DNA of 64,000 nucleotides from Candidatus Dojkabacteria bacterium (GTDB taxonomy: Bacteria > Patescibacteriota > Dojkabacteria > B142 > WJKM01), in assembly GCA_014729085.1 (NCBI GenBank), contig WJKM01000011.1:46264-110263 (forward strand). The letters are read 5' to 3'. The notes below the pieces were generated by a model that worked only from the letters and a program-made list of their open reading frames with translations, had not been told where the DNA came from and ran no database searches. This document shows, one piece after another, positions 9,501 to 61,794 of this stretch. The position numbers and the translations under genes are program-made. How positions within the stretch are numbered: position 1 is the stretch's first letter; every line of letters starts with the position of its first letter.

Positions 9501-12500
9501 TAACTGAAATTGGTAATTCAGATATTAGAGCCCCCATATTCTCCTCTACTAAATCAGATACAATTGAGTATCCGCATGCTGTATTGGCTAGATTGCGGAT
9601 AACATCAAATTGAAGACTTTCAATTTGCCCAATTAGATCTCCATTTTCTGACAAAACTCTAACTTCCCATTCTGCTGGACCTTCTGGATAATCATCTTCA
9701 TGAGTTAAAAGAAAGGAAGCAGTATTATCAATTATTTCAAAGATACCGCGCCCCAAAATTCCATCTTCCAACTCGATCCAATTGCTAAAATCTCCGCCTG
9801 CCAATCTTAATCTCCCCTGTAATCTGAATCCATTCTGCCAATTCTCGACTTCTACATGAAGCCCATCATTATCTACAGCATCTCCAACACCACAGGCAGT
9901 ACCTGGAACAATGGGTGTAAGATATGAATTATTTATGTTTATTACCACTTCTTCTGTAACCGGAGGATTCTCAGGATCGAAATTACTATCTAAAACAAAT
10001 ACTTTATGGAAACTCGGGTAAGATTTATTATGTTCTTTATCCATTACCTGATGACCAATCCGATAAACTCCATCTGTAAAATATCTCTCTACTCTATCGT
10101 GCTCCACACACCTACTAAAAGAAGTACCCCAAAAAGCAGGATTATTATACTGAAGCGCTCTTCTATTAGTTCTCTCATTAATTGTATTGTAACTTGAGCT
10201 ACTTGTAAAAATTGGAGCACAGAGAATTCTCTTACGTACTGGTTCGGGTTGTCCATCTATTGGTAAGCTATTCAATTCTTCAATATAAAACACCGCCTGT
10301 TCCGGCCCTGATGGATAGGGTTGAGGATCAACATATTTTGCGTGAAAATATAATTCCCAGATATTATTTGTATAAACAATTCCATTAATCTCCATTCCTC
10401 CAGAATAGCTTACGTTTTCCACAAGCGGATCTAAAGTATCAGAGCCTATACCATACTCACCTTCATAAGCAGGTAATTCCTCACTCGAATCTGAATCGAT
10501 ATATTCATCTGGGATATTGGGGTTTGCACTGACAGAAAAATCTAATCTAAGAGTTTCTACTCCTTTCTCTGAAAACCAAGTTATTCCTTCATGCACCAGA
10601 TCTATTTCTAAACTATATTCGCCTGGCTGTGTAGGAGGAACTACTTCTAAAGCCAAACCCTGCTCTACCGAATTAAAGTATAAAAATTTAGAAAAATTTG
10701 TTCTTTTACCATCCCACTCATAAAGGCTTTCTTCTGTACAGACTTCACTATCGAGTTCACATTTCTTATACCAATGATAAGATGCTCTCACGGGATTTTC
10801 TCCCGCGTTTTGCCATGTAAGGCTTCCAGTGTTTTCGATATCTACAGGTATTATAAAAGACTCGTAAGCTAGAATTTCATTATTAACCTGTTCTCTTAAA
10901 TTATAGTCAGCTGAATATTTCTGAGCCAAAAGTATTTCATCAAAGTAAATACCACTTGCATTTCCATTTTTATAAAACTGAATATTGACTCTCTTAATTC
11001 CTTTTGTAGAATCTAATTTCCAATATACTAGACTTTGGAAAGGTTTCCTTTCTATTTCGTCAGGATTTTCATTTGAATTCCAAATTTTCATCTCTGTTGG
11101 GCTTCCAAAAGCTGAAATGTCTAATGCAACTACTTGACTATTTGTAAAGACATCATCATTGTTTATGATAATATCCCCACCAAACAAAGCTTCATCAGGG
11201 GACGAACTTCTTTTTGTTGTATTGTCAAGAATTATTGAATCGCTCTTAACTTCAGATACATTGCCGGCTTTATCTCGATATTTAACAAAGACGAAGGAAT
11301 GACCGGTCTCTGAAGCTAGATTATAATTAATTTCGCAGCTTAAATAAGTTGGGTCATCTCCTTGGCATGTCTCCCAATCACTCCAATTGTTTTGATCAGA
11401 ACTTAGGGAGTAGGATATAAAACCTGATCCAGGTACACAGTTTACTCCCTCCTGATTACACAAATCTGGGTCTTCAGCTGTAAGCGCCAAATTAACACTA
11501 GTAGAATTTGTTTTATATGAATCGTTGTTAATTTTTATACTTCCATTAGGAGACCTGGCATCTAAAATAATATTGTCACAAGATTCATCTGAAATATTTT
11601 CAGCCGAATCCTTAATTTGAATACAAATATTTTTCTCTCCATTTACTAAAGGATCTTTGAGGGAATCTATAACTCCCTTGGAAAAAGGTATCCAAGAACT
11701 ATATTCCTCAGCTTCACAAGTATCATTACAGTACTTAAACCTCATATATTTTGCTTCCAGCTCTGAATCTACCGCTATAGAAAGTGCCACTGTACTTTCA
11801 GAAGTATATTCTTCATTATTATTTATTATAATTGAAACTTGAGGTACTAAATGCTTCAATACTATCTCATCTGAAAAAACTTCAGAAACATTACCTGCCC
11901 TATCTTGAGTTTGCATAAATACTTTCAAAACCTCTCCGTCTATTCCATTATCCCAACTTAATATATCAGAAAAAACTTCTCCTTCTTCATATACTTGCCA
12001 ACCTGAAAATGCACTATTATCAAATGAAAATCGAATCTTTTCGACTCCGGATACTTGATTTTTATTAAATTCAAAACCTGGAATCGTAACAGGAGATAAA
12101 CTATCTGTACTTATAAATGAAATATAATTTTTTAATTTCCCTGTATATTCAGGATTTGATAAATCATACTCAAAATGCCCAATCAAAATATCTCGAAAGT
12201 CAATACTTTTTGAAAACTGCGTGGAATCGGGAGGTGTTATATCATAAACAAAACTCTCAGATGCTATGGAAACATTGCCTTTTTCATCAGTTATCTCGAT
12301 ATATTTGGAATGTCTACCTTCTGCCTGTAACAATGGTTTATGTTCAAGTATTGGAATTGTAAGTTCAGATCCATCCCATTTATTGCATACTACAGAATTA
12401 TTTTGCGAATCCATTCCCATTATTCGAGGGCAATTAGTATTAGGAAGAAAATCAAATGTAAACCAATTAAACCCATCATTTGAAAATCTTGCTCCTTTTA

Positions 12501-13485
12501 TTTCGTACGTGTTCTTAGTTGCTGAATATACGGCATTCAAATTGTTCAAATTGCTAGTGAATTCAATTCCACTCTCTTGATCGCTCTTAAAAAGGATATT
12601 ACCTGACGCCGGTATTGGCAATTCATTATTAGACTCGTCCACATATTCAATTATTTCATTGCCAAGTTCTGTACCTGTCCAATCCTTTTTGGGATCTAGA
12701 AGTTCTGAGATTTGAGGTGCTTCCCCAGACGCTCCATTAAATTTGAAAATTATATCGTTGTAATCTTTGTCACTTCTATGTCCTTCATCCATTCTCTGGT
12801 CCTCGATTGCGAAACCTTTTCCTCCTCCCGTTATATCTCCTATCTGGCCGTAGTAAAAGATATCCTCAGGATTTGAAGTTGCCATTGAGAAAAGGGGTCT
12901 TTTTTTACCACCAATATCAGGATTTTCATAAACTTCTTGAACTGTTCCATCGGGTACAAGCATAACTCCAAATTCTTCATACGGCTGCATCCAAAAGCTC
13001 TTAAATCCCATATAGGGCCCTGAATTGTGATTACCATCACCATTTAGCGGTCCATCAAACCTAGCTCCCTCCTGTATATCCGAAATAATTACAAAACCTT
13101 CCGATTCAGACAGAGCTCTTTTTGCTGCCTCCTCAATGAATTCTTCGGGATTGCTTAATGATCTCATCCCATTTAAAGAAAAAATAGCAAGTTCTCCTTT
13201 ATATCCACCGCCATCAAAAACGAAATCAGTTAAGATTTTTCCTGTTTTTCCTGTTGTAAATACACCTGAAGTAAATTCTAAATTCTCAGTTAAAGTTAAA
13301 TTTTCCTCCTCAAATATCTCTCCTGAACTAACTAATAATCTACCAGAAGCAGATACTTGTTCATCTGAATTTAAATCTTCTCCCGACTGTGCATAAGATA
13401 TTGAATTTAAAATAAACAATGGTTGTAAAAAGAAATACAGGCACATTAATAAACAAAATATACGCTTAAAATTTACTTTTCTCAT
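6520..13485 (-). CDS. giant (2321 aa) secreted multidomain cell-wall hydrolase: signal peptide, DUF4114-like N-domain, Ig/FN-like repeats, two SH3b-like modules, M23 peptidase domain 1, three SLH repeats, M23 peptidase domain 2
   Basis: Uninterrupted 6.9-kb ORF with N-terminal signal 'LLMCLYFFLQPLFILNSISYAQS'. Two M23 metal-binding segments: '...NTGYVRGNPDHNLDKQGCHLHLEIHE' and 'NTGNTEGSHLHYEIF'. SLH motifs: 'HGYSDGNFYPKRLVTRGQTAKFIVNAF', 'QGYSDGTFKPDEYITKGQLAKILIEA', plus a third degenerate copy. SH3b-like: 'DPWYYIRLSDGTRGWIPGVFV' and 'GDKILIIKELDDWYKVIASDDLTIGFIHKAYV'. Confidence 0.85.
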   Translation of the reverse strand: MRKVNFKRIFCLLMCLYFFLQPLFILNSISYAQSGEDLNSDEQVSASGRLLVSSGEIFEEENLTLTENLEFTSGVFTTGKTGKILTDFVFDGGGYKGELAIFSLNGMRSLSNPEEFIEEAAKRALSESEGFVIISDIQEGARFDGPLNGDGNHNSGPYMGFKSFWMQPYEEFGVMLVPDGTVQEVYENPDIGGKKRPLFSMATSNPEDIFYYGQIGDITGGGKGFAIEDQRMDEGHRSDKDYNDIIFKFNGASGEAPQISELLDPKKDWTGTELGNEIIEYVDESNNELPIPASGNILFKSDQESGIEFTSNLNNLNAVYSATKNTYEIKGARFSNDGFNWFTFDFLPNTNCPRIMGMDSQNNSVVCNKWDGSELTIPILEHKPLLQAEGRHSKYIEITDEKGNVSIASESFVYDITPPDSTQFSKSIDFRDILIGHFEYDLSNPEYTGKLKNYISFISTDSLSPVTIPGFEFNKNQVSGVEKIRFSFDNSAFSGWQVYEEGEVFSDILSWDNGIDGEVLKVFMQTQDRAGNVSEVFSDEIVLKHLVPQVSIIINNNEEYTSESTVALSIAVDSELEAKYMRFKYCNDTCEAEEYSSWIPFSKGVIDSLKDPLVNGEKNICIQIKDSAENISDESCDNIILDARSPNGSIKINNDSYKTNSTSVNLALTAEDPDLCNQEGVNCVPGSGFISYSLSSDQNNWSDWETCQGDDPTYLSCEINYNLASETGHSFVFVKYRDKAGNVSEVKSDSIILDNTTKRSSSPDEALFGGDIIINNDDVFTNSQVVALDISAFGSPTEMKIWNSNENPDEIERKPFQSLVYWKLDSTKGIKRVNIQFYKNGNASGIYFDEILLAQKYSADYNLREQVNNEILAYESFIIPVDIENTGSLTWQNAGENPVRASYHWYKKCELDSEVCTEESLYEWDGKRTNFSKFLYFNSVEQGLALEVVPPTQPGEYSLEIDLVHEGITWFSEKGVETLRLDFSVSANPNIPDEYIDSDSSEELPAYEGEYGIGSDTLDPLVENVSYSGGMEINGIVYTNNIWELYFHAKYVDPQPYPSGPEQAVFYIEELNSLPIDGQPEPVRKRILCAPIFTSSSSYNTINERTNRRALQYNNPAFWGTSFSRCVEHDRVERYFTDGVYRIGHQVMDKEHNKSYPSFHKVFVLDSNFDPENPPVTEEVVININNSYLTPIVPGTACGVGDAVDNDGLHVEVENWQNGFRLQGRLRLAGGDFSNWIELEDGILGRGIFEIIDNTASFLLTHEDDYPEGPAEWEVRVLSENGDLIGQIESLQFDVIRNLANTACGYSIVSDLVEENMGALISELPISVRMGPSFEFSEITRIGFGEIFEILQKTPEKTDPWYYIRLSDGTRGWIPGVFVDKNPDYNIPVQSPEEPLYQNAKVCNLDHEIPLKMASDWNSRDMYTGFSVSNTKLINNGDKILIIKELDDWYKVIASDDLTIGFIHKAYVCRLGSLDLEEIAQLDFEMPFGDASELTFPFAPRQEDFHYADDFGIPCNTPVKAVYGGTVKETGTEGIVMGNDSTSQTPANYVILSHSLFDSSGETLESHYWHLNEVWVNEGDQVAKGQLIGLSGNTGYVRGNPDHNLDKQGCHLHLEIHETQDDFARNPLHVLGENIAQERIDELKSKYLKDLNDKEIVNNLEYGTGSEVAVSDTLEVEVGVEFDKNGQLKLQYFYGKPSPPIITEVQVNPKKDTAWIYGVSTYKQAQFNLKVTYFDQTVREFRFYQQLDHVGIQLYKNRIGRDLELNNAFTWAEKDGNWAKKLVLGDELNVGDTIYARTKVWDSINNLAEGDELFRNFIYNIRYAEENEYMVSGKSNKEKILTLEDREIERKIEQAEAESAEECQPRKGMLDVCGNKYWEHIEELIERNIIHGYSDGNFYPKRLVTRGQTAKFIVNAFNLKIDTEGKRFPDVPEDHVFFEHIYTLRNKKIIQGYSDGTFKPDEYITKGQLAKILIEATNLYSCKNNSPLFQDVPRNYMFYKYIQSLGNYGVKEEGSMFYPDQQVQRDLMAFYVNMTRREFEDWTFEDDVEQGCISTESPVSFDVFESVLKETYINKFEQKTKNWTEERKLSELTKWINSPEEYQLNFNLFQDWLCNATGGCLSHGRKAAIDISMQNNTPLVSTINGTAYFRGKDSQGAYYVDVMNEKYQIRYLHLDPNTSNLYKQSKYKEVQKGELIAYSDNTGNTEGSHLHYEIFIKIPEIQQYKSTFSKKCLYVGAPDCEEYKGDIEELSKFLSSKENSEDYKKWEDDVRLQKFAYDVFKPLFEKGGYYSRYDLGVSAYYFKDWSDRVFTSAMAEISSRI
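6845..7150 (-). other. M23 peptidase domain 2 (C-terminal) of the giant protein
   Basis: 'GTAYFRGKDSQGAYYVDV...IRYLHLD...ELIAYSDNTGNTEGSHLHYEIF' covers the HxxxD and HxH M23 motifs. Confidence 0.65.
7386..7820 (-). other. three tandem S-layer homology (SLH) repeats inside the giant protein
   Basis: Back-translated SLH motifs at about 7748-7816, 7565-7640 and 7386-7490. These lie between the two M23 domains. Confidence 0.7.
8620..8980 (-). other. M23 (LytM-type) peptidase domain 1 of the giant protein
   Basis: 'FGIPCNTPVKAVYGGTV' upstream part and the 'CHLHLEIHE' HxH motif (codons at about 8641-8664). Confidence 0.7.
9076..9415 (-). other. two SH3b-like modules inside the giant protein
   Basis: Located by back-translating 'DPWYYIRLSDGTRGWIPGVFV' (about 9330-9415) and 'NGDKILIIKELDDWYKVIASDDLTIGFIHKAYV' (about 9076-9180). 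Confidence 0.45.
12735..13215 (-). other. DUF4114-like N-terminal domain of the giant protein (tentative)
   Basis: 'GFAIEDQRMDEGHRSDKDYNDIIFKF' resembles the conserved FED...D-Y/F-N-D core I remember for DUF4114. Boundaries approximate. Confidence 0.35.
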
Positions 13486-49919: not shown

Positions 49920-50516
49920 TTATTTTTCCTCGGAGTCATCATCAGTTGTCTCCTTTATTTCCGCAATATCCTCCTCGAAAACAGCCTTGATAACCTCATT
50001 TTCTTCCAAGGTCACTTTAATATCTTGCTTTTTATCTCCTACAATCATTACAAGATCAACCTCCCAACAACCAGGGCATCTAAGCTGAATAATATCTTGA
50101 TATTGGAGATCTGCTTCGGTAAAACCAATAAATTCTTCCATATTAAATACATATTCTTTGGCTTTATCTACTATTTGTTGTTTTTCAACATCCAATTCAG
50201 CAAGCGAACCTTCCTGAGCTTTCGGGCATTCTTCTTGCTTTGGGTCAAAACATTTTTCTGTAGAGGCACACCATACGAAACCTTTAGCAATAAGACACCC
50301 GTGTTCATCCTGCTCCTCACTAGGCGGTTTTTCCTCAGCTACTTCAGTTTCCTCAATTAAATTTTCTGCTGTATCCTCGGGTTCGGGTTCTTTTGGGTTA
50401 AAATATGCTAACAACAAAAAACCTCCAACAATAAATACAAATATTAAAATAATAAACAAGGGAAGATTCGTCGTTTCCGGCTCTGCAGAATTACTATCAT
50501 CTTTTTTAACGTTCAT
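49920..50516 (-). CDS. secreted/membrane-anchored acidic Cys-containing hypothetical protein
   Basis: 198-aa ORF. TM 'LFIILIFVFIVGGFLLLAYF' followed by an acidic domain with 6 Cys. Confidence 0.45.
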   Translation of the reverse strand: MNVKKDDSNSAEPETTNLPLFIILIFVFIVGGFLLLAYFNPKEPEPEDTAENLIEETEVAEEKPPSEEQDEHGCLIAKGFVWCASTEKCFDPKQEECPKAQEGSLAELDVEKQQIVDKAKEYVFNMEEFIGFTEADLQYQDIIQLRCPGCWEVDLVMIVGDKKQDIKVTLEENEVIKAVFEEDIAEIKETTDDDSEEK

Positions 50517-51081: not shown

Positions 51082-54000
51082 CTATTCAATAACAATCTCT
51101 TGTGACTTATCCAAATAATTTACCATAGTGGGATCATCCATAGATTGAATGATAGGTGTTTCTGCCTTGAAAGTTCCCTTTGAAACAACTCTTGCATAGT
51201 ACTCAATTGTCTTATATCTGGAGTTTTTATACACACAGAAACTACTTCTCTGTCCCTCTATCGAATATGGGTGCTTGTAAGAGTACATCTCTTCGTAATG
51301 ATAACCTCTTTTATAAGGACTGCTTACTGCCTTTAATCCGGCAGGTAGTATATCGCTTACTTGATAACACTTACCCTTTGGTGCATTCCCACCAATATCA
51401 AATTTTATCTCAACTCTAACCAAATCAGTATCCTTAAATGTTGTACTTTCCACCCCGCCGATTGTATACTTCCTTGTTAAGGAAAGATCTTCATCCTTTG
51501 GTAAAATTTCTGGATTGACTGCTTTGTCAAATGTTGAAATTATCCCTAAGTTTCCATCAACAGAATTAAATTTGAATTTCTTCAACTCAGAAGGAGATAA
51601 CTGAACTTTATAAACCTCACCTTTTTCCAACTCTATCTTCTCATTTTTGCTCCCAGCTTCATATTCGAATGTTACAGGGGCTTTTGGCAACAATGGTAGT
51701 ACTGCCTGCAAATATCTTGCCTCCTCCAATCCGGTAAGATTATATTTAGAATTATGAGTGTCTATGTATTCATAAAGATCCTCTCCTTCTTCTTCATTTA
51801 AGATTCCTGCAAGCATGGTGACCAGAGCTGTTATTTCTACATTCTCATTTTGATCATCGCTGACCTTAATAAGAATTGAACCTTCCGAATTTGTTCTATA
51901 CTCTTGAATGATGTCTTTATATACATCTCTTGCATACTCTTTATTACCAATTTCTGCGGATGCAAGTGCAAGATATATTTCTTCCTTGACGCTTAAATCA
52001 TTCTGTTGCTTAAGCATCTTAATATAAGTCAAAACCGGTTCTTTTAGAGCGGCCAATCCATAAACGGCTTGTATACCTCTTTCCCGTCCTTCTTCTTTAT
52101 TATCCAAAATTGAGTAAAAATAATCTGCTAGAGCCAGCTGATCAAATTTTTCACTAGCAATCGCAGCTACTTTTGCAGACAATTCTAAATCTTTGTCACT
52201 GTATGGGAATAGAGAAATCCCCCCACTCTCGGTTTGATAGTTTTCCGGTCTCCAATACTCTTCCGAAAATTCTTCTACATCAAAATGTTCTTCAAACATT
52301 TCTTTGGATAAAAGCCTTACTATCTTTTGATCAACCCTATCTCCCCAGGTAAACTGCAAATACAATACATCATCATAATATTTGCCACGATTTTCATCTA
52401 AGAAGGTAAGAGTCGTCGGAGAATCTTTACTCCCTTCCAGTTTTGTATCCGGAGAATATTCATAAAAATTAACCTCTTGAATTTTCAAGAATGATGACTT
52501 TATATTGATCTCTTTTTGTATCTTATCCTCATAATCTCCTACTTTTGCTCCTACTATTATTTTGTGAGTTCCCTGCTTCAATTCGTTTAATTCGAACTCT
52601 ATAGATTCGAAAGCTTTAGCCTTAACTTTCTTTCCTTCAATACCTAGGGTCTTTGCTTCGATAGTATACTCAACATCCCAATCCGACTTTAGTTCGTCCC
52701 CATAAGCTCTTGCCTTGATTATTGGTTTATCGCCTTCTAGGTATACATCGTTCATAACCAAGTCAACAAAAAACGGTAAGGAAACATCCACATTTGTTTC
52801 GTTATCTCCTGCATATAGGTCCGGAGATATTGCCTGCGATGTAACATGCCATGATGTGATATTGTCCGGTGCTACAAACTCGACACTTCCCTTTCCACTT
52901 TCGTCTGTTTTCACTGTTGTAAATAAAGCTGTATCCACAAACCATTGCCGGGCTTCTTTGTTATGTACAAAAATTCCGTCTGCAAAGTAGGTGTGGTATT
53001 CATCAATTTCTAAATTATAAATATCGAAATCTCCTGTCCTACTCTCAATAGTCTCTATTTCTACCCATTCATTCTTATCATTTAACATAAAATCTCCAGC
53101 TCTTATATCTCTTGCCTGCTTCCATTGACCATTTATATACATAAAATGAATTGGAGTTACTCGCAACTTTCTATTAATATAAAGATACTCTTCTCCTTTA
53201 TGATGCATTGTTTCTAACACCTTAGCTTCCACGAAATTACTCGACTCCTCACTCTCTTTAGTGAGTACAATATCCCCAATTTCTACATCTTCAATATTTT
53301 TCAACTTAAAACCTTTCATTAAAATTTTTGTCCCAGGAAGAAAACATGTATCGCCTTTACCACCAGCAGCAGGCTCTGGCATTATGTGAGATCCGTACGT
53401 TTGCAGTATCCCGGAAGTAACATTTTTGTATAAAGAATTTAATGGATAAGGCTTTTTATCCATCAGTTGAAACATTGCTTCATCAATAATGCTGAAATTC
53501 ACATCACTCTTTTTTCCCTTCCCGCTTTGATCTTTCACACTGACATCAATTTTAATCTCGTCTCTTGGTTTGTAATTTGTCTTTTCAGGGGTTAGTTTAA
53601 TATCGAGCTCCCTTTCGTTCTGATAATAATCAATATTATAATTTCCAGTTTCCTTGAATGTCTGTCCGTCAAAATAAACTCCTTTTATGAAAATATTTGG
53701 TATATGTTCCTTTTTAAACGTCATGGAGAATCTTGAATTATCTTGAACTTTATATTCATCTATACCCTGTTGAGCATATAGGTAAAGAAATGAGGTGTTC
53801 TCCCCAGAAGGAATTTGCTCAGCATTATTCATGAACGCCATATCCACTCTTTCATTTAGTTTATAACCCGAACCATTCTCTCTATCTTTTTTGGATGTAA
53901 CTTCTAAATAATAATGATCTCTTGACTCGTAATCAAATGACCTACCATAAATATAGCTCCTTTTTTCCATTCCATGTCCATCTACATCAGTTGTCCAAAA

Positions 54001-56643
54001 GTCGATATAATAATATTTATCCTCAGTAGTATCGAATTCGAATATAGCTTCTCCCTTTGCATTAGTAGTTATAACGCTTTCGCCTAAAGCCCGGCTTCTT
54101 CTTTTATAATCATATTTCTTACGATTTACTTTATCAATATAATCATAATACTCACCAACCTCTATTCTTTCATACCATTCTTCAGTTAGATTGACTTTTA
54201 TTTCTTTATTCACAATAGGATCTGCAAGATAATCCTCTGTATTCTTTGCAGTACCATTATTGAGTCTCTCTAAAGTAATTTTATTCAATTTTACTGTAGC
54301 TTTCCTTTTATTTTTTGCTGTTCTTTCTGTTTCAACTTTCATATTAGTCCGAAAATTAAATACTCTGACATGCTTTGTACCTTCTATTTCTCCTTCTTCG
54401 GAACGCTTTGGGTGCACATAAACAGAAGAATGTTGAGGATATATATGATCCTCCATTCCTCTTGGCTGCTTATAACTAATAGCGAATTTACCATCCTCAC
54501 TTGACGTAACTTCGCCATCAGGCGCATCGTAAATTGTATATTCTAAAGGAATATTCGCTACAGGAGTTCCTTCAAAGAACTCAGTTTTCCCATCAATCTT
54601 AATTTCTTCATCCCAGAAATAAGCTTCCTTGTTAGAATCAAGAGAGATTTTATATGCTGGTTTTGTGTAAGTCTCCACCCTGAAACCGTCTTCAATAATT
54701 AACTGTTCATTTTCATCATATATCGAAATAGTGTAATATCCTGTCTGGAGATTCATCAGAGGAACCTGGTCTGTAAAAGTACCATTCTCACTAACCTCAA
54801 TGCGTTTAGAATAAATACTAACAGGATTATAGTAATAATCAAAGTAACCCGATTTTGTTACTTTGACTGTTAATTCGGTATTATCCGAACCATACCTCTT
54901 TTTAGCAAGTCCCCAAAAGCTAACCGTATCCGTAGGTTTATATAAATCCCTGTCTGTATATACATATGACCAATAATCCTGAGACTCATTTCCATAATAG
55001 TAATAATCTTCATCATAATAATAATTGTACCCTCCATAGTATCCATAATATGAATCTGTCGTTGGTATAACTACCTGTCCTGCCTCCCCCTTAATTTTAA
55101 ATACATAGGATCTATAAGTGTCTTTTAATTCTTTAGGTGTATCGAACTCAGCTATTCCCTGCTCATTTGTTTTATGAACACTTGATCCAGACATTTGCAG
55201 TTGGATTGTCGCATTTGAATCAGGCTTTTTAGTTTGATGATTCATTATCCATGCAATACTCTTTTTCTCAGATGTGGTTAAAAATACGGTTGTATCAGTT
55301 ACCTGAAACCATGCCTGAATTTTCTCCCCTTCTGCATAATGAGCATCTATTAAATAAAACCCCCCTGGAAGAACATCGGGTAGTACTATGTATCCAGTAG
55401 ATCCTTCATTTGAATACTGAATCGGAACTTCAGCAGTCAAGACTTTCTCTAAACTGCTTATGTCTTGCATATAGGTCGCTTTAGTATTATATGCCCACAC
55501 AGGTACTTGTAATTTTTCATTTAATGTATTTGCATATTGCTCAATGTCTTTAAATTGGAATACATCGACTAGTATTGTATTTTGATTTCTTTCACCCCAA
55601 TATGTGAAGGTAGGTTTTCTTGTAGTTGGAAATTCAAAGCTGTCTTTTCTGAAACTTGGCCTTGATGCCCTTTCAATTTTAGTTTCAAATTGGAAAGTAT
55701 AATCTTCTTCAAGTTTTTCATCTGTTTCATTCAGCTTAAGTCCTTTTTTGATCCTCACAGTATATAATTGTCCTGCTTGAAAGCCTCCATTTGGAACAAA
55801 TACAGCTGTTCGCCTTGCTCTTTCAAATCTTCCAGAAACTGAAGGTGAAATTTCGAAATAAGGTTGTATATCTTCGAAATTCTCATGGCTGAAGGTAATT
55901 TCTACCCCCGAATTTGCCGGTGCCGAACTCGACTTGTCAGCAGGATGCGTCTGAATAATTCTAAATGGATTTTTAACTTGAAACGCCCAAGACAAATCTT
56001 TTTTAGTCTCTTCGTCTTCTGGGTCTTCTATAATTGCAATATCTAAATTGTTTACAGAGTTTACCTTCAATTCTTCTTTCATAGAAACCTTGAAAATATT
56101 ATCTTCCACTTTGGTAACAGTATAATCAGTTTCTGGAATTACCATTAAACTATCTTCAAGATCATTTTGTTCTATTTCCTTCTCGGTCTCAATAATGAAA
56201 TCTGAATCTTTTTCAATACCTGTTGGGTCCTCCTCCGTGGCTTTTACATTTATTTCCGAAGGCGATATATGTAATCTTGGCCTTTCCTCCTGTTCCTGGG
56301 ATTCCGGTTTAGGGGAAGTCCGTTCTACCTTAAAATAACTCCATCCAAGTATTATTAATATAAACCCGATCAAGCCTAAGACTAAAAAGATTCCAATCCC
56401 AAAAACAACTTTTTTTTGTTCTTTTATCTTTGTCAATAAGCTAGATTTCTTTTTAATTTTTTGTACATCCTGACTTTCCGTCGATTCATTTTTTTTATTT
56501 ACGGAACTATTTGATTCAACCTCCTGTTCCTGGCTTTGTTTTTTCATTTGAGTATTAAAAAAGGTTAGATATATCTTTATTGTATTTTGTATTAGCAATA
56601 GTATCAAGTTAATATTGCGCCTTTCTATATCTAAGACGCACAT
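51082..56643 (-). CDS. membrane-anchored alpha-2-macroglobulin-family protein lacking a thioester motif, with an inserted Hint/BIL domain
   Basis: 1853-aa ORF; the probable start is the 'MKKQSQEQ' Met at about 56547. TM anchor 'VVFGIGIFLVLGLIGFILIILGW' and long beta-rich MG-like repeats. 'IIDEAMFQL' (cf. A2M 'VDEAVLxL' preceding the bait region), 'ITSWHVTSQ' (cf. 'FPETWLW') and C-terminal 'DILPAGLK...YYARVVSKGTF' (cf. A2M receptor-binding 'DPLPAGFE...YxARAVTPG'). No C-x-E-Q. Confidence 0.8.
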   Translation of the reverse strand: MCVLDIERRNINLILLLIQNTIKIYLTFFNTQMKKQSQEQEVESNSSVNKKNESTESQDVQKIKKKSSLLTKIKEQKKVVFGIGIFLVLGLIGFILIILGWSYFKVERTSPKPESQEQEERPRLHISPSEINVKATEEDPTGIEKDSDFIIETEKEIEQNDLEDSLMVIPETDYTVTKVEDNIFKVSMKEELKVNSVNNLDIAIIEDPEDEETKKDLSWAFQVKNPFRIIQTHPADKSSSAPANSGVEITFSHENFEDIQPYFEISPSVSGRFERARRTAVFVPNGGFQAGQLYTVRIKKGLKLNETDEKLEEDYTFQFETKIERASRPSFRKDSFEFPTTRKPTFTYWGERNQNTILVDVFQFKDIEQYANTLNEKLQVPVWAYNTKATYMQDISSLEKVLTAEVPIQYSNEGSTGYIVLPDVLPGGFYLIDAHYAEGEKIQAWFQVTDTTVFLTTSEKKSIAWIMNHQTKKPDSNATIQLQMSGSSVHKTNEQGIAEFDTPKELKDTYRSYVFKIKGEAGQVVIPTTDSYYGYYGGYNYYYDEDYYYYGNESQDYWSYVYTDRDLYKPTDTVSFWGLAKKRYGSDNTELTVKVTKSGYFDYYYNPVSIYSKRIEVSENGTFTDQVPLMNLQTGYYTISIYDENEQLIIEDGFRVETYTKPAYKISLDSNKEAYFWDEEIKIDGKTEFFEGTPVANIPLEYTIYDAPDGEVTSSEDGKFAISYKQPRGMEDHIYPQHSSVYVHPKRSEEGEIEGTKHVRVFNFRTNMKVETERTAKNKRKATVKLNKITLERLNNGTAKNTEDYLADPIVNKEIKVNLTEEWYERIEVGEYYDYIDKVNRKKYDYKRRSRALGESVITTNAKGEAIFEFDTTEDKYYYIDFWTTDVDGHGMEKRSYIYGRSFDYESRDHYYLEVTSKKDRENGSGYKLNERVDMAFMNNAEQIPSGENTSFLYLYAQQGIDEYKVQDNSRFSMTFKKEHIPNIFIKGVYFDGQTFKETGNYNIDYYQNERELDIKLTPEKTNYKPRDEIKIDVSVKDQSGKGKKSDVNFSIIDEAMFQLMDKKPYPLNSLYKNVTSGILQTYGSHIMPEPAAGGKGDTCFLPGTKILMKGFKLKNIEDVEIGDIVLTKESEESSNFVEAKVLETMHHKGEEYLYINRKLRVTPIHFMYINGQWKQARDIRAGDFMLNDKNEWVEIETIESRTGDFDIYNLEIDEYHTYFADGIFVHNKEARQWFVDTALFTTVKTDESGKGSVEFVAPDNITSWHVTSQAISPDLYAGDNETNVDVSLPFFVDLVMNDVYLEGDKPIIKARAYGDELKSDWDVEYTIEAKTLGIEGKKVKAKAFESIEFELNELKQGTHKIIVGAKVGDYEDKIQKEINIKSSFLKIQEVNFYEYSPDTKLEGSKDSPTTLTFLDENRGKYYDDVLYLQFTWGDRVDQKIVRLLSKEMFEEHFDVEEFSEEYWRPENYQTESGGISLFPYSDKDLELSAKVAAIASEKFDQLALADYFYSILDNKEEGRERGIQAVYGLAALKEPVLTYIKMLKQQNDLSVKEEIYLALASAEIGNKEYARDVYKDIIQEYRTNSEGSILIKVSDDQNENVEITALVTMLAGILNEEEGEDLYEYIDTHNSKYNLTGLEEARYLQAVLPLLPKAPVTFEYEAGSKNEKIELEKGEVYKVQLSPSELKKFKFNSVDGNLGIISTFDKAVNPEILPKDEDLSLTRKYTIGGVESTTFKDTDLVRVEIKFDIGGNAPKGKCYQVSDILPAGLKAVSSPYKRGYHYEEMYSYKHPYSIEGQRSSFCVYKNSRYKTIEYYARVVSKGTFKAETPIIQSMDDPTMVNYLDKSQEIVIE
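52960..53346 (-). other. Hint (intein-like, BIL-type) domain inserted in the alpha-2-macroglobulin-like protein
   Basis: 129 aa. Block A 'CFLPGTKIL', block B 'VTPIHFMY' (TxxH), block F/G 'YHTYFADGIFVHN'. It is followed by Lys rather than C/S/T. No homing-endonuclease insert. Confidence 0.7.
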
Positions 56644-57753: not shown

Positions 57754-59346
57754 CTATACATCTGAATCCAGACAAGTTAATGGATCAGTACACCCCGTAT
57801 CTTCAGGGTCTCCTCCTGTGGTGCCGTCATCTCCACTATCTCCAGAGTTTTCTCCATCCTCCACCCCTAATTCATCTTTTAATTTTTCCATATGATCTTG
57901 GTAATCCTCACCTCCTGTATCTTCAGGGTCTTCAAAGACACTTGGGTCATAACCGTCGGGATCATGATAGACTTCGTCACCATCCCATGTACCATCCGTA
58001 GTATCAGTATTCGGGTCGTAATTTGGTGGTAAACCGTAATCTCCAGGGTCTGTAATTTCTGTATCCCAGCCACTTCCCCAAAAATCTGGATCAAAATTGG
58101 GAGGCAATCCATAATCTGCAGCATCTATAATATTTATCTCGCCTGTTTGTACCTGGAAATCATCTGCAAAAGCTGGTATATCAATCTCATCTGCTACGAC
58201 CATATCCCAGTCTCCAACAGGTATATCAAAAGTCTCTCCTCCCACTCCCTCAGAATCATGAGATACAATAACAGGGCCATTGTGGCTCTCATCAATAATT
58301 GCTTTTGTAACTTTGTTCTGTATATCTGTAGGAATTTGAGACCAGCTCCTCCCAACACTATTTGAAACAGTCGATTCAATAGTAGTTTGAACTTTATTAC
58401 TAGTTGCAATAGTAACTTTTTGAGACAAAGCTGGATTGGTTTGGTTTGAATTGGTAGTCTTAACTTTGGCTTTAGGCATTTCATCTGACACTGTATCGAG
58501 CTTGCCTTTCTCTATTATATCCTTCACTACATTTTCTGCATATCCGCTTGGAGTAAATGGATTCTCACCCCCAAGTACTGCTTGATTTGCCTCTACTACT
58601 GTCTCTACGGCAGTCTTTCCCAAATCAGTTGTTACTTTTTTCCAATCAACTGCAGCATTCAATTCTGGGTCTCGTGCTAATTTTTCTACCGTACTGTCGC
58701 TTGCATCTCTTAAATCCTCAACACTATTCAAATTATATGCATCTAAAAATGCTTGCCTATCAACTTGTTCAAGATCATTTTTCATATAATCATAGATCCC
58801 AGATCTGCTTGTCTCAATTGACTGATGCTTTGCTTTAACAAGAGAGCCAATTATTGGTACGTGATACCACCAGCTGTATCTCTCTTTTGCATAGACTTTT
58901 TGGATAAGTAGATTTTCAGTATTCATACCTACTGGTTCGCTATACAAATCAAACATCATAGACAAAGTTTCAGCCTGCATCAATGTCTCTTCAGCTACCA
59001 TATTGAACTGATCATAATTATCAAAGAAACTATCTGCATCCTCAACTGAGGCTGCATAAATCATATTCCTGTCATACTGGATCAGTGTAGCTAAATTTTC
59101 ATGATAATCAAAAAGCAATGCATTAACACCTTCAAAATCCGAAGGCTGGTAATCTCCTTCTGAGACACCGGAAGAACCGTTGCTACTATTAAAAGTATCA
59201 GTGCCATCGTTATCTGGATTTGAATCTGACAACCACAATATTGCACCACAAGATATACAAATACACAATACTAAAACTATAACTATCAAGATAATAATTA
59301 GTCCCATCTTAGACTTACTTTTGGTTTTTACTTCGCTGTTAGTCAT
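57754..59346 (-). CDS. N-terminally membrane-anchored acidic surface protein with tandem 'DYGLPPN(F/Y)DP' repeats and Cys-containing C-terminus
   Basis: 530-aa ORF. TM 'LIIILIVIVLVLCICISCGAILW'. The C-terminal 150 aa are extremely Asp/Gly/Thr-rich with the repeats 'GDYGLPPNFDPDFWGSGWDTEITDPGDYGLPPNYDP'. Confidence 0.5.
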   Translation of the reverse strand: MTNSEVKTKSKSKMGLIIILIVIVLVLCICISCGAILWLSDSNPDNDGTDTFNSSNGSSGVSEGDYQPSDFEGVNALLFDYHENLATLIQYDRNMIYAASVEDADSFFDNYDQFNMVAEETLMQAETLSMMFDLYSEPVGMNTENLLIQKVYAKERYSWWYHVPIIGSLVKAKHQSIETSRSGIYDYMKNDLEQVDRQAFLDAYNLNSVEDLRDASDSTVEKLARDPELNAAVDWKKVTTDLGKTAVETVVEANQAVLGGENPFTPSGYAENVVKDIIEKGKLDTVSDEMPKAKVKTTNSNQTNPALSQKVTIATSNKVQTTIESTVSNSVGRSWSQIPTDIQNKVTKAIIDESHNGPVIVSHDSEGVGGETFDIPVGDWDMVVADEIDIPAFADDFQVQTGEINIIDAADYGLPPNFDPDFWGSGWDTEITDPGDYGLPPNYDPNTDTTDGTWDGDEVYHDPDGYDPSVFEDPEDTGGEDYQDHMEKLKDELGVEDGENSGDSGDDGTTGGDPEDTGCTDPLTCLDSDV

Positions 59347-59523: not shown

Positions 59524-61794
59524 ATGCCAAGAAATCTTTATCGTACTGAACCCACGGTCATAAATCAGATTGAGAGGACAAAAAAAAGAACTGGAAGTAA
59601 ATATCTTGAGGTTGCAACTAGTAATAAAAAGAAGCTTAAAGAGTTCAGCAGGGTTTTAACTGATTATGAAATTATAGGCAAAAATTTTGATATAGAAGAG
59701 ATACAATCCAATGATCCAATTAAAGTTATCAAACAAAAGGCTAAAGGAGCTTATGAACAAAACAAGTTCAATCCTATCCTAGTTGAGGATACCTCTCTTG
59801 AGATTAAAGGCTTGCATGGCCGACCTGGAACTTATGTAAAGGATTTTTGTGCTGAAGCTGGGATGAGGAAAATAATAGTTGAGGAATGGCTAAAGAATAA
59901 AGATCGCTCTGCTGTGGCAAGGGTTTTATTAGGACTTTTCGATGGTATGGAAGTGCATATCTGGGAAGGAAAAACTCAGGGAAGAATCGCTAAAAAACTC
60001 AGAGGAACAAATGGTTTTGGCTGGGATGATATATTTATTCCCAAAGGCCAAAAAACAAGAAAAGCAAGAACTTTTGCTGAAATGCAAGATAAAGAAAAAG
60101 ATAAATATTCCATGAGAAAGAAAGCTTTAAATAAGTTCCTTTCAAATCCAGTGGAAATGAATTATCCAGTATTTAGAATTCCAGAGCCTTATGAGCAGGA
60201 AATGAAAAGAGTTCAACCTGATAAACTGCAACAGTCCAAAGCAATAGAATTTGCTTTTCAGTTAGAATGCCTTGAACAAAAAAACAGTCCAAACAAAAGT
60301 TTTAAGGCTGATAAATATACATCATTGGTAACCACACAAAATCCATACTTTACGAGATTTCTAACAAAACCAAATACAAAAAGTATAGGCCTAATACTTA
60401 CAGATGTAGACAGAAAAAGATTAAAATTTTATAAAAATGGAGATCCTGTTTTATGGCAGATGGGACCAGAAAGACGTTTCCTAGCTTTAGCACAGCGAAC
60501 AGAATATTTTATGCATAACCAAAATGAAGAAATACATGAAATCCTTGATGACCTAGAAAATAGAAAATCAAATTTCCCTAAAAGAAACAATTTGCGATCT
60601 CCCACAATCGATAAAGCACTTGAGGTGGCCGGCGCTACATCTATCACAAAAGCTTTGTCCTTGAGAGAAATTGGATACAAGAAAATATCAGCTGATAAAT
60701 ATGTTAGCCGTACTAAAAGCGCAAAATATGGGCTCTTCAATATTGTTGGGAAGTATGCAAGGAGTATTTATGGAGTGGGTTGTCTCCCATGGGTTTCTGG
60801 ATGGAGAGATGTCATTGTAACTTCCGCCATTGGACATATTCCCGTCTTTGTCCATAGAAATAATATTAATGCTATAGATTTTCGAAATCAGATAGATTTG
60901 ATTAAAGAGAGCAAAAAGGTTATCGCCAAACTTAAACTTTCGAAGAAAGGAATTAGAAGAGCATACCAAAATATTGGCGCCGCAATTGGATGCCATCCAA
61001 TGAGAGACTTAGAAAGAGCCAAGAGACTTTATAAGGAAGCTGGTATCAAGCTTTTTAGAATTTACACTATTAACTCCGATCCCCGTGTAATTGAAACTGC
61101 TCATGCATTGAGAAAATATTTTGGCGATGAAATAGAAATCTTTGTCGGGCAACTGGTAGACAAGAAGCAGTGCAAACAATTAATACAATCAGACATTAAT
61201 GTAGATGGACTAATATTTGGGCATGGAGGCGGAAGGCAGTGTACCTCGGCAACTAACGGGATGGCCCTCTCTACTCTTGAGGAAATCTACAGTATTACAA
61301 CTGATAAAAAATTTAATAATACATCTTTATTGGTTGAAGGAGGGATAGGTTCTTATGTAGGTGGTCTACTAGTAATGGGCGTAGACTGTATCCTACGCAA
61401 TGCTCAATTTGCAAATTGTGTTATTGAACAAGGAGATACTTATTTTGAGTATCAAGACGGCAGACTTTGCCAACCCTATCATGGAAGTGCTAGTGCGCCG
61501 ACAATGATTATCGAATCTTTTAATAAAGAAAATGCAGAGAAAAAACTTTTCTATAGTGGTCGTACTAAAAATGTAGAAGGAACATCAGGATATATTTTCT
61601 ACAAGGAAAAAGCCAACTCTATGACTTTTTATATTAACCAATTTAAACACTATGCTGCTCGCACCCTAGCTGATATGGGCGTGGACAGTTTATGGGAGTT
61701 AAGAGATTTTTTGCAGAGTAATGAGGATGAGCTTTTAAGAGTAGTATCCCAGGACGCTGCATATACAGCTTCTGCTTGGAATCAGGGCCAATGA
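59524..61794 (+). CDS. fusion protein: N-terminal Ham1/RdgB-type non-canonical purine NTP pyrophosphatase (ITPase) + C-terminal IMPDH/GMP-reductase-family TIM-barrel domain
   Basis: N-terminal: 'LEVATSNKKKLKEF', 'EDTSLEIKGLHGRPGTYVKDF', 'GFGWDDIFIPKGQKTRKARTFAEMQDKEKDKYSMRKKALNKF' (Ham1 motifs). C-terminal: 'NIGAAIGCHPMRDLERAKRLYKEAGIKLFRIYTINSDPRVIETAHA...', catalytic-loop-like 'IFGHGGGRQCTSAT' (Cys codon 61240-61242) and 'LLVEGGIGSYVGGLLVMGVDCILRNA...YHGSAS' (cf. IMPDH 'IADGGIR.SGDI.KALAAGA..VM.GS..AG...YRGMGS'). No CBS pair seen. Confidence 0.75.
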   Translation: MPRNLYRTEPTVINQIERTKKRTGSKYLEVATSNKKKLKEFSRVLTDYEIIGKNFDIEEIQSNDPIKVIKQKAKGAYEQNKFNPILVEDTSLEIKGLHGRPGTYVKDFCAEAGMRKIIVEEWLKNKDRSAVARVLLGLFDGMEVHIWEGKTQGRIAKKLRGTNGFGWDDIFIPKGQKTRKARTFAEMQDKEKDKYSMRKKALNKFLSNPVEMNYPVFRIPEPYEQEMKRVQPDKLQQSKAIEFAFQLECLEQKNSPNKSFKADKYTSLVTTQNPYFTRFLTKPNTKSIGLILTDVDRKRLKFYKNGDPVLWQMGPERRFLALAQRTEYFMHNQNEEIHEILDDLENRKSNFPKRNNLRSPTIDKALEVAGATSITKALSLREIGYKKISADKYVSRTKSAKYGLFNIVGKYARSIYGVGCLPWVSGWRDVIVTSAIGHIPVFVHRNNINAIDFRNQIDLIKESKKVIAKLKLSKKGIRRAYQNIGAAIGCHPMRDLERAKRLYKEAGIKLFRIYTINSDPRVIETAHALRKYFGDEIEIFVGQLVDKKQCKQLIQSDINVDGLIFGHGGGRQCTSATNGMALSTLEEIYSITTDKKFNNTSLLVEGGIGSYVGGLLVMGVDCILRNAQFANCVIEQGDTYFEYQDGRLCQPYHGSASAPTMIIESFNKENAEKKLFYSGRTKNVEGTSGYIFYKEKANSMTFYINQFKHYAARTLADMGVDSLWELRDFLQSNEDELLRVVSQDAAYTASAWNQGQ

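Follow-up and report, generated by a model that had tools for sequence, protein, structure and literature searches.

The window analysed here is a 64,000-nucleotide stretch of Candidatus Dojkabacteria DNA (contig WJKM01000011.1, assembly GCA_014729085.1), and all positions below are counted from its first letter. Its reverse strand carries an open reading frame (ORF) whose 1853-amino-acid (aa) product is 100% identical to the NCBI entry "hypothetical protein GF362_03865" of Candidatus Dojkabacteria bacterium, and which, by profile and structure comparison, encodes a membrane-anchored, thioester-less member of the alpha-2-macroglobulin (A2M) family with a bacterial intein-like (BIL) Hint domain embedded in its bait loop (Table 1). 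A first inspection of the letters and their translations (hereafter the sequence-only reading) had described a BIL-type Hint with Cys1, TxxH and His-Asn signatures, Lys at +1 and no endonuclease, placed at the bait-region position of an A2M-like protein that has no CxEQ thioester. Every part of that description is borne out by the searches, alignments and models that follow.

The 129-aa Hint segment runs from CFLPGTKIL to GIFVHN, is preceded by GGKGDT, passes directly into the C-side linker and contains no endonuclease insert. Isolated from its flanks, it matches the Pfam family PT-HINT with an E value of 2.6e-15 (57 bits, cutoff 27.7), with Intein_splicing and Vint also above their Pfam cutoffs, and the NCBIfam model intein_Cterm at 27 bits (cutoff 15.6); its best sequence match in the PDB, over the full length, is 2LWY, a "bacterial intein-like domain" from Clostridium thermocellum. 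A structure model of the Hint with its flanks has a mean predicted local distance difference test score (pLDDT) of 76, rising to about 85-97 over the Hint region. In Foldseek the top match of this model is the BIL2 domain of Tetrahymena BUBL (6y75, E 8e-12), and 2LWY superposes with a TM score of 0.86 and a root-mean-square deviation of 1.9 A; these two BIL structures, at E values of 1e-10 to 1e-12, rank above mini-inteins and Hedgehog.

The residues on which Hint chemistry would depend are kept with great strictness. C1100, H1166, N1210, T1218, H1227 and N1228 are invariant in 134/134 representatives and T1163 is kept in 132 of them; the terminal His-Asn pair is present in 161/161 relatives, Cys1 and His-Asn are both intact in 80/80 genome loci, and no degenerate Hint copy was seen in an A2M context among the 134 representatives and the 80 loci. 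The Hint is also conserved more than its host (about 43-49% versus 27-40% identity), and in most family members its Cys1 is the only cysteine beyond a C-terminal pair. The +1 residue, Lys1229 in the window protein, varies among the 161 relatives (D in 63, E in 28, Q in 26, A in 21, K in 5, N in 4, I in 2 and G in 1; S in 8, T in 2 and C in 1), so that it is non-nucleophilic in about 93% of them (D, E, Q, A, K or N) and a potential Ser, Thr or Cys nucleophile in 11. The residue before Cys1 is Thr in the window protein as against Gly in about 90% of relatives. A canonical class-1 intein would carry Cys, Ser or Thr at +1, a homing endonuclease or some sign of homing or horizontal spread, and none of these was found for the window module. 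On sequence and fold, the module is a type-A BIL Hint that looks catalytically intact and is predicted to process itself, and the pattern of conservation indicates that both cutting steps, at Cys1 and at the terminal Asn, are under selection.

Comparisons of the host point just as consistently to a full-length A2M-family protein that lacks the thioester. A profile of 31 family members matches ECAM, SaA2M, human A2M, TEP1, C5 and CD109 in the PDB, alignment with ten canonical bacterial A2Ms in hhalign gives a probability of 100% and is collinear over aa 142-1853, and an AlphaFold model of aa 900-1853 (mean pLDDT 85) finds ECAM and SaA2M as structural matches in Foldseek, at E values of 1e-34 to 1e-30 (4e-34 for ECAM). 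A search for a CxEQ motif in the 1853-aa protein, which has four cysteines in total, returned none; C1759 and C1803 of the bMG10-like domain are the only cysteines of the mature protein besides that of the Hint. The canonical YPYGC-xEQ aligns on FTWGDRVDQ (aa 1431-1439, hhalign), and the thioester Cys is absent from 31/31 family members examined, with and without Hint alike, the site reading G[DNTSE]R[VLI][DE]Q. Pfam TED_complement has no match in the window protein whereas it does match the canonical relatives; the corresponding helices of the thioester-domain (TED)-like region are nonetheless modelled at model residues 520-752 with pLDDT 85-97. D1054 and E1055 of A2M_BRD are invariant across the family, and bMG3 is also matched weakly when Pfam is run over the whole protein. 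At the N-terminus, aa 79-101 form the top hydropathy window and the sole strong membrane anchor, and because of this anchor and the Lys-rich stretch before it the bulk of the protein, Hint included, is expected by the positive-inside rule to lie outside the cytoplasm.

Several lines place the Hint in the bait loop. The Pfam order along the protein is A2M_BRD, Hint, A2M, and an alignment to human A2M residues 727-813 begins at the final Hint residues. We take the human bait region to be residues 690-728, as annotated in UniProt, and thus to end where that alignment starts. In hhalign the Hint appears as a pure insertion after a GGG shared by canonical A2Ms and just upstream of R-x-x-F-P-D-T-A-Y-W, and across the family the distance from His-Asn to the conserved RxxFxD strand is 3-11 residues. 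The AlphaFold model of aa 900-1853 shows a confident Hint (pLDDT 86-93) between low-confidence linkers of 17 aa (1083-1099; pLDDT below 50 at model residues 184-200) and 10 aa (1229-1238), the former aligning with the conserved GAExGG motif of relatives. The Hint is therefore modelled as a separate globule on two disordered linkers, and by homology to known A2M and C3 structures the strands on either side of it would belong to one split macroglobulin (MG) domain. The family has a short bait loop in which a Gly-rich, acidic motif is conserved, GGAE(K/Q)GG[ED]GG (in the window protein aa 1086-1099, 53347-53388, reverse strand), which is unusual for a supposedly variable protease bait; four members (P0018, P0020, P0024 and P0026) have long, variable, low-complexity inserts at the bait-loop site instead.

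Table 1. Features of the A2M-family gene and its embedded Hint domain in the window
Feature	Residues (aa)	Window positions	Strand	Basis
Whole gene, membrane-anchored, thioester-less A2M-family protein with embedded Hint	1-1853	51082-56643 (including stop codon)	-	ORF
N-terminal signal-anchor/transmembrane helix, VVFGIGIFLVLGLIGFILIILGW, preceded by a Lys-rich stretch	79-101	56341-56409	-	Hydropathy
Big_5 Ig-like domain	224-321	55681-55974	-	Pfam, E 7e-7, above cutoff
MG2 macroglobulin domain	560-656	54676-54966	-	Pfam, E 6e-10, above cutoff
A2M_BRD bait-region domain, ending IIDEAMFQL	927-1060	53464-53865	-	Pfam, E 1e-7, above cutoff
Disordered N-side bait-loop linker, ...SHIMPEPAAGGKGDT, up to the predicted scissile bond Thr1099-Cys1100	1083-1099	53347-53397	-	pLDDT <50
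Type-A BIL/PT-HINT-like Hint domain	1100-1228	52960-53346	-	Pfam, NCBIfam, PDB sequence and structure matches
Hint key residues: Cys1100 (block A); Thr1163, His1166 (block B TxxH); Asn1210, Thr1218 (block F); His1227-Asn1228 (block G)				
Disordered C-side linker, KEARQWFVDT, beginning at +1 Lys1229	1229-1238	52930-52959	-	pLDDT <50, model residues 330-339
Hint-linked lysine, Lys1229	1229	52957-52959	-	
A2M domain, includes PDNITSWHVTSQ	1238-1311	52711-52932	-	Pfam, E 2e-9, above cutoff; aligns with human A2M 727-813
TED-like all-helical domain without thioester	~1419-1651	51691-52389	-	AlphaFold helices and hhalign to canonical TED
Degenerate thioester site, GDRVDQ	1434-1439	52327-52344	-	hhalign against GC-xEQ of canonical A2Ms
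C-terminal bMG10-like domain	1758-1835	51139-51372	-	Weak Pfam bMG10, E 0.003; hhalign reaches the C-terminus

The sequence-only reading had implied that this architecture is rare, and here it was mistaken. HMMER, run exhaustively over 1.84 billion cluster representatives (clusters at 50% identity) with the Hint and both flanks as the query, yielded 150 relatives among the matches listed, nearly all spanning the whole query in one stretch and belonging to proteins of about 1700-1900 aa. The Hint is present in 159 of 188 collected proteins, some of them named automatically by NCBI as "polymorphic toxin-type HINT domain-containing protein", "alpha-2-macroglobulin" or "Ig-like domain-containing protein". 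When one genome was scanned for each GTDB species, at least 386 relatives were confirmed; 80 of these loci were examined for the Hint and all 80 have it intact, with Cys1 and His-Asn, at the same site. Nearly all of them carry labels of the Candidate Phyla Radiation (CPR), namely Dojka-, Uhr-, Collier-, Peri-, Peregrini-, Magasanik-, Sacchari-, Gracili-, Doudna-, Woese-, Davies-, Ames-, Pace-, Wildermuth- and Moranibacteria, with WOR-1 among the further labels, and one relative is from Bipolaricaulota. Nine loci (L005, L008, L010, L011, L018, L019, L028, L036 and L078) come from metagenome-assembled genomes labelled Gammaproteobacteria, Pseudomonadales, Flavobacteriales or Micavibrio, and in 6 of these 9 the GC content is 34-44%; the labels being uncertain, such loci may represent mislabelled bins or genuine occurrences outside CPR. 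Querying a word-indexed database with the Hint alone produced three matches and little extra. Four multi-Hint surface proteins also surfaced (P0132, 3399 aa; P0162, 2780 aa; P0184, 410 aa; P0203, 224 aa), each with two to four tandem, closely related PT-HINT/BIL domains, and the three of them that were scanned with Pfam (P0132, P0162 and P0184) also have PKD, Big_7 or MopE-type domains. The suspicion that the combination is new to the literature fared better, in that open-access papers, searched for a pairing of Hint, intein or BIL with macroglobulin, bait region or CPR, yielded none that describes it, and the Hint in an A2M bait loop thus appears to be undescribed in the searchable literature yet common in CPR bacteria.

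How the Hint came to be distributed in this way can be approached through relatives that lack it. In an initial set of 33 family members, 14 with the Hint (Hint+) and 19 without (Hint-), the insertion point is identical throughout, between GAExGG and [DE]-x-G...RxxFxD. Hint- members read GGAE(Q/K)GG[ED]GG..R at the site, with the Gly-Gly equally conserved there, and the bait-loop lengths of Hint- members and of Hint+ members with the Hint removed overlap generally. Orthologues with an empty site, the possibility of which the sequence-only reading had raised, therefore exist, and one of them (P0010) has 81-86% protein identity and 81% DNA identity to the Hint+ protein P0007. The junctions of this pair, with slashes marking the domain boundaries, are AEGGGA/Hint/IKG-REYF in P0007 and AEGGGGGGG-REYF in P0010, so that the loops are of equal length minus the Hint. 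In the DNA, four Gly codons of P0010 stand in place of GCT-[Hint]-ATC-AAA in P0007. A simple, precise deletion leading from P0007 to P0010 was therefore rejected: the event, whether loss or replacement, altered more than the Hint codons.

A single gain that would unite the Hint+ proteins in one clade was likewise rejected, their monophyly being recovered in 0/200 bootstraps, and the Hint+ CPR clade of the host tree includes the Hint-less proteins P0009, P0010 and P0014. The trees of the Hint and of its host are congruent for the most part: pairwise identities of the two correlate with r = 0.80 in the first 14 Hint+ members, divergences correlate with r = 0.42 on the 134 representatives, where 0/500 Mantel permutations reach the observed value, and the GC content of the Hint equals that of its gene. 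The idea that the Hint moved recently between divergent hosts, by horizontal transfer or homing, was also considered and set aside, no pair combining highly similar Hints with dissimilar flanks; the largest Hint-host residuals among the 134 representatives are at about z = 4, with Hint identities of 58-71%, and there are no extreme outliers. The Hint of P0161 is 50% identical to the window Hint, as against a median of about 27% for its flanks to other representatives, a similarity that seems to fit the general plateau of Hint conservation rather than a clear transfer. These patterns indicate that the Hint is an old, mainly vertically inherited resident of the bait site across CPR lineages that has been lost occasionally.

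P0161 and P0186, both from JGI metagenome contigs, bear on a further proposal. They are canonical A2Ms with an intact YPYGCVEQTTS and Pfam matches to TED_complement and bMG10, and their Hints (aa 806-934 and aa 797-925, respectively) sit between A2M_BRD and A2M, at SGAEKGG/C...HN/EKGGG. The sequence-only reading had suggested that Hint chemistry substitutes for the missing thioester, and the notion that the Hint is an evolutionary replacement for it is rejected by its distribution across Hint+, Hint- and thioester-bearing members: the presence of the Hint is not coupled to thioester loss, because the Cys is missing from 31/31 family members whether or not they have a Hint, P0010, so close to a Hint+ protein, does without the Hint, and P0161 and P0186 have both thioester and Hint.

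What is coupled to the Hint is a lysine. Exactly one Lys occurs at +1 to +3 after His-Asn in 159/161 Hints, as against about 18% expected from composition, whereas Hint-less orthologues read [DE]GG at that place and have no Lys after the site. In Tetrahymena BIL2 the thioester is resolved by the epsilon-amine of a lysine to give an isopeptide bond (PMC8616854), and by analogy the Hint-linked Lys could be a ligating nucleophile here; alternatively, it may assist catalysis.

On this evidence we think it rather probable that the type-A BIL excises itself from the bait loop after export and that the two halves of the protein are then either re-joined through an amine or left as two chains. The precursor would be exported via its N-terminal signal anchor and the Hint would fold outside the cell. 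Cys1100 would then attack the carbonyl of Thr1099 in an N-S acyl shift, giving a thioester, and Asn1228 would cyclise to a succinimide, cutting the Asn1228-Lys1229 bond and letting the Hint leave, after which the thioester would be resolved either by an amine of the C-terminal half, re-joining the halves, or by water. One candidate for this amine is the newly freed alpha-amine, in line with proposals for type-A BILs, in which an N-terminal thioester, cleavage by Asn cyclisation and possible ligation via a free amine have been described (PMC4031507); the other is the epsilon-amine of the Hint-linked Lys found within +1 to +3, by analogy with Tetrahymena BIL2. With either amine the bait loop would end up at the length seen in Hint-less orthologues, and the water route would yield a two-chain protein whose halves stay associated, as bait-cleaved MagD fragments do (PMC5764988). 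Self-excision as such we regard as likely; within it, re-ligation seems somewhat more likely than pure cleavage to be the selected outcome, because both cutting residues are invariant though one cut would already split the chain, because the loop length matches that of Hint-less orthologues, and because the Lys is strictly tied to the presence of the Hint.

Several points weigh against this account. Every reaction step in it is modelled on conserved residues and on the behaviour of other BILs, and published BILs give mainly N- and C-cleavage products and little spliced product (PMC4031507, PMC7664689), so that re-ligation may be a minor outcome. The Lys is perhaps there for catalysis and not for ligation, because related Hints in non-A2M proteins also read HN/AK, HN/KP or HN/KW. 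The window protein is itself atypical, with Thr at -1 where Gly is usual and Lys at +1 where +2 is usual, typical members reading GG/Hint/DKG. Finally, the perfect conservation of catalysis in a fold that might tolerate an inactive Hint on flexible linkers suggests some role for the Hint besides its own removal.

The last of these points, like the predominance of cleavage among published BILs, would suit maturation or self-activation by cleavage only, in which the Hint severs its bonds to both flanks and the thioester simply undergoes hydrolysis. The product would be a membrane-anchored N-chain (MG and bait-region domains) and a C-chain (MG, CUB, TED and MG10) held together non-covalently, with the cut at a position equivalent to bait cleavage in A2Ms and to furin or convertase processing around the anaphylatoxin (ANA) domain in C3, C4 and C5, and with the cleavage acting as a protease-independent, possibly conditional, trigger or maturation step. 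The insertion at the bait position, His-Asn lying so close upstream of RxxFxD, and the continued association of the MagD halves agree with this, and the flawless catalytic residues on flexible linkers suggest that the chemistry itself is useful. Serious rival as it is, we find it less likely: two chains would need only one cut, yet Cys1 and the terminal Asn alike are invariant; a pre-cleaved bait is the spent form in trap-type A2Ms; in close orthologues the working form is a single chain whose Gly-rich loop is intact; and the strict Hint-linked Lys is left unexplained. A more elaborate possibility is covalent capture in trans, where the Hint thioester on the anchored N-half would serve as a working "warhead", attacked by a Lys or other nucleophile of another molecule, for instance a protease that engages the bait loop or an envelope component, and so tethering the target to the anchored half, a functional analogue of the lost TED thioester. 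The ubiquitin-like N-flank of BIL2 ends in Gly-Gly. In favour of capture, about 90% of relatives have a conserved Gly-Gly at the end of the segment preceding the Hint, a TED thioester is absent from the host family, the Hint Cys1 is the sole Cys outside the C-terminal pair in most members, and BIL2, the closest structural relative, conjugates its N-flank to lysines of various substrates (PMC8616854). Capture is quite improbable, however, given that thioester loss is common to all 31 members, that the Hint is dispensable, as P0010 shows next to P0007, that the same Hint occupies this site in two A2Ms whose YPYGCVEQ is intact, that Hint-less proteins conserve the Gly-Gly ahead of the site just as well, and that an invariant C-terminal Asn is needless for N-terminal transfer alone, as in Hedgehog, which does without it.

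Two further ideas fall on conservation and on architecture. An inactive structural bait or plug insert whose intein-like ends are coincidental would sit naturally on flexible linkers, as the ANA domain of C3 presumably does at the same topological position, but it is rejected, as highly improbable, on the invariance of all catalytic residues in the 134 representatives and the 80 loci. A polymorphic-toxin pre-toxin Hint that releases a C-terminal toxin, as the NCBI automatic names imply and as the best Pfam match, PT-HINT, could suggest, is barely conceivable and is rejected on domain architecture: beyond the Hint, towards the C-terminus, comes no toxin but the collinear remainder of an A2M (A2M, TED-like and bMG10), the same C-terminal half is present in Hint-less orthologues, and there is no immunity-like gene adjoining.

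The favoured account, self-excision by a type-A BIL, has partial precedents in several systems. BIL4 of C. thermocellum (PDB 2LWY), a type-A BIL (Amitai 2003, Dassa 2004 and Aranko 2013, as cited in PMC4031507 and PMC7664689), is alike in its size of about 130 aa, the lack of an endonuclease, the Cys1, TxxH and His-Asn signatures, the non-nucleophilic +1 residue and the placement in a flexible stretch of a protein that is secreted or exposed at the surface. The module here differs in its A2M host, its bait-loop site and its strict single Lys at +1 to +3; and whereas BILs are scattered in hypervariable proteins, this one is fixed at one orthologous site across a superphylum. BIL2 of Tetrahymena thermophila BUBL (PDB 6Y75/6TMM), the top Foldseek match, offers a possible parallel in the arrangement Gly-Gly/Hint/x-Lys, but it is eukaryotic, has ubiquitin-like flanks and is 23% identical to the Hint, and the role of Lys as nucleophile in the latter is a conjecture from this parallel. 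PT-HINT domains of CdiA, Rhs and MafB, members of the best-matching Pfam family, are likewise extracellular autoprocessing Hints, but they differ from the present case, where neither a C-terminal toxin nor an immunity gene is found and the second A2M half lies downstream.

Among macroglobulins, complement C3, C4 and C5 are alike in having a globular domain and a chain-breaking site inserted before the RxxFPExW strand, between the halves of BRD/MG6, but they are processed by furin or convertases and not autocatalytically, and their ANA domain is unrelated to the Hint. The equivalence of position has alignment support from the A2M-family profile against human A2M and C5. For bacterial A2Ms, CXEQ with PBP1c (Type I) and a six-gene mag operon (Type II) are the recognised hallmarks (PMC5764988). 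Type II proteins such as MagD/YfaS share with the window protein the A2M architecture, a bait region, the absence of CXEQ and membrane association (PMC5764988, PMC3735191), but the window protein has no six-gene mag operon (PMC5764988), belongs to a separate sequence family and carries the Hint in its bait loop. It differs from the Type I proteins ECAM and SaA2M in having no CXEQ and no neighbouring PBP1c. The lineage of the window organism is generally described as having no outer membrane, and the N-terminal transmembrane anchor of a protein from such a lineage is a further difference from MagD/YfaS.

No functional partner is evident in the neighbourhood of the gene: a Pfam scan of ten neighbouring ORFs found no PBP1c, mag-type operon, toxin/immunity pair or other conserved partner. 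The neighbours include GDH, an AraC-type regulator, a HAD hydrolase, a NUDIX protein and a Ham1-IMPDH fusion, together with two adjacent ORFs without a Pfam match; the flanking genes bear no relation to each other, and the gene neighbours at loci L001 and L002 differ from those in the window. The two flanking genes at 49920-50516 (reverse strand, 198 aa) and 57754-59346 (reverse strand, 530 aa) both encode N-terminal hydrophobic segments and highly acidic tails and have no Pfam match; they are the immediate neighbours of the A2M-like gene, with a NUDIX gene in between. The fusion, a 756-aa ORF at 59524-61794 (forward strand), joins a Ham1-type (ITPase) domain to an IMPDH/GMP-reductase-like domain. 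Farther away, the window contains a 2321-aa ORF at 6520-13485 (reverse strand) with Peptidase_M23, SLH, SH3_3 and DUF4114 domains, a giant putative cell-wall-active surface protein, and two tRNA genes on the forward strand, tRNA-Arg(GCG) at 1580-1655 and tRNA-Ser(CGA) at 1763-1849, about which there is nothing unusual.

The case is informative in that two questions, what BILs are for and how thioester-less macroglobulins work, meet in a natural experiment. A BIL that appears intact is fixed in the loop that matters most to the function of an A2M-type protein, across most of the named CPR lineages sampled, and natural controls exist in the form of Hint-less orthologues and thioester-bearing Hint+ relatives. 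If the Hint only splices, this would be a clean case of an intein-like element that has long persisted in a surface protein without a homing endonuclease, and if the splicing is of a cis isopeptide kind, onto the Hint-linked Lys, it would be a new splicing variant in bacteria. The strict His-Asn/x-Lys signature may indicate that in bacteria Hint thioesters are resolved by a lysine, with an isopeptide as the product. If instead the Hint cleaves or conjugates, a macroglobulin could be matured, triggered or armed by it without any protease, and trans capture, if true, would define a new class of self-arming, protease-independent A2M. A2M-domain membrane proteins of a CPR predator have been interpreted as a likely defence against host proteases, with no mention of a Hint (PMC8080830), and it is in such macroglobulins, thought to shield episymbiotic cells from the proteases of their hosts (PMC8080830), that this chemistry would operate.

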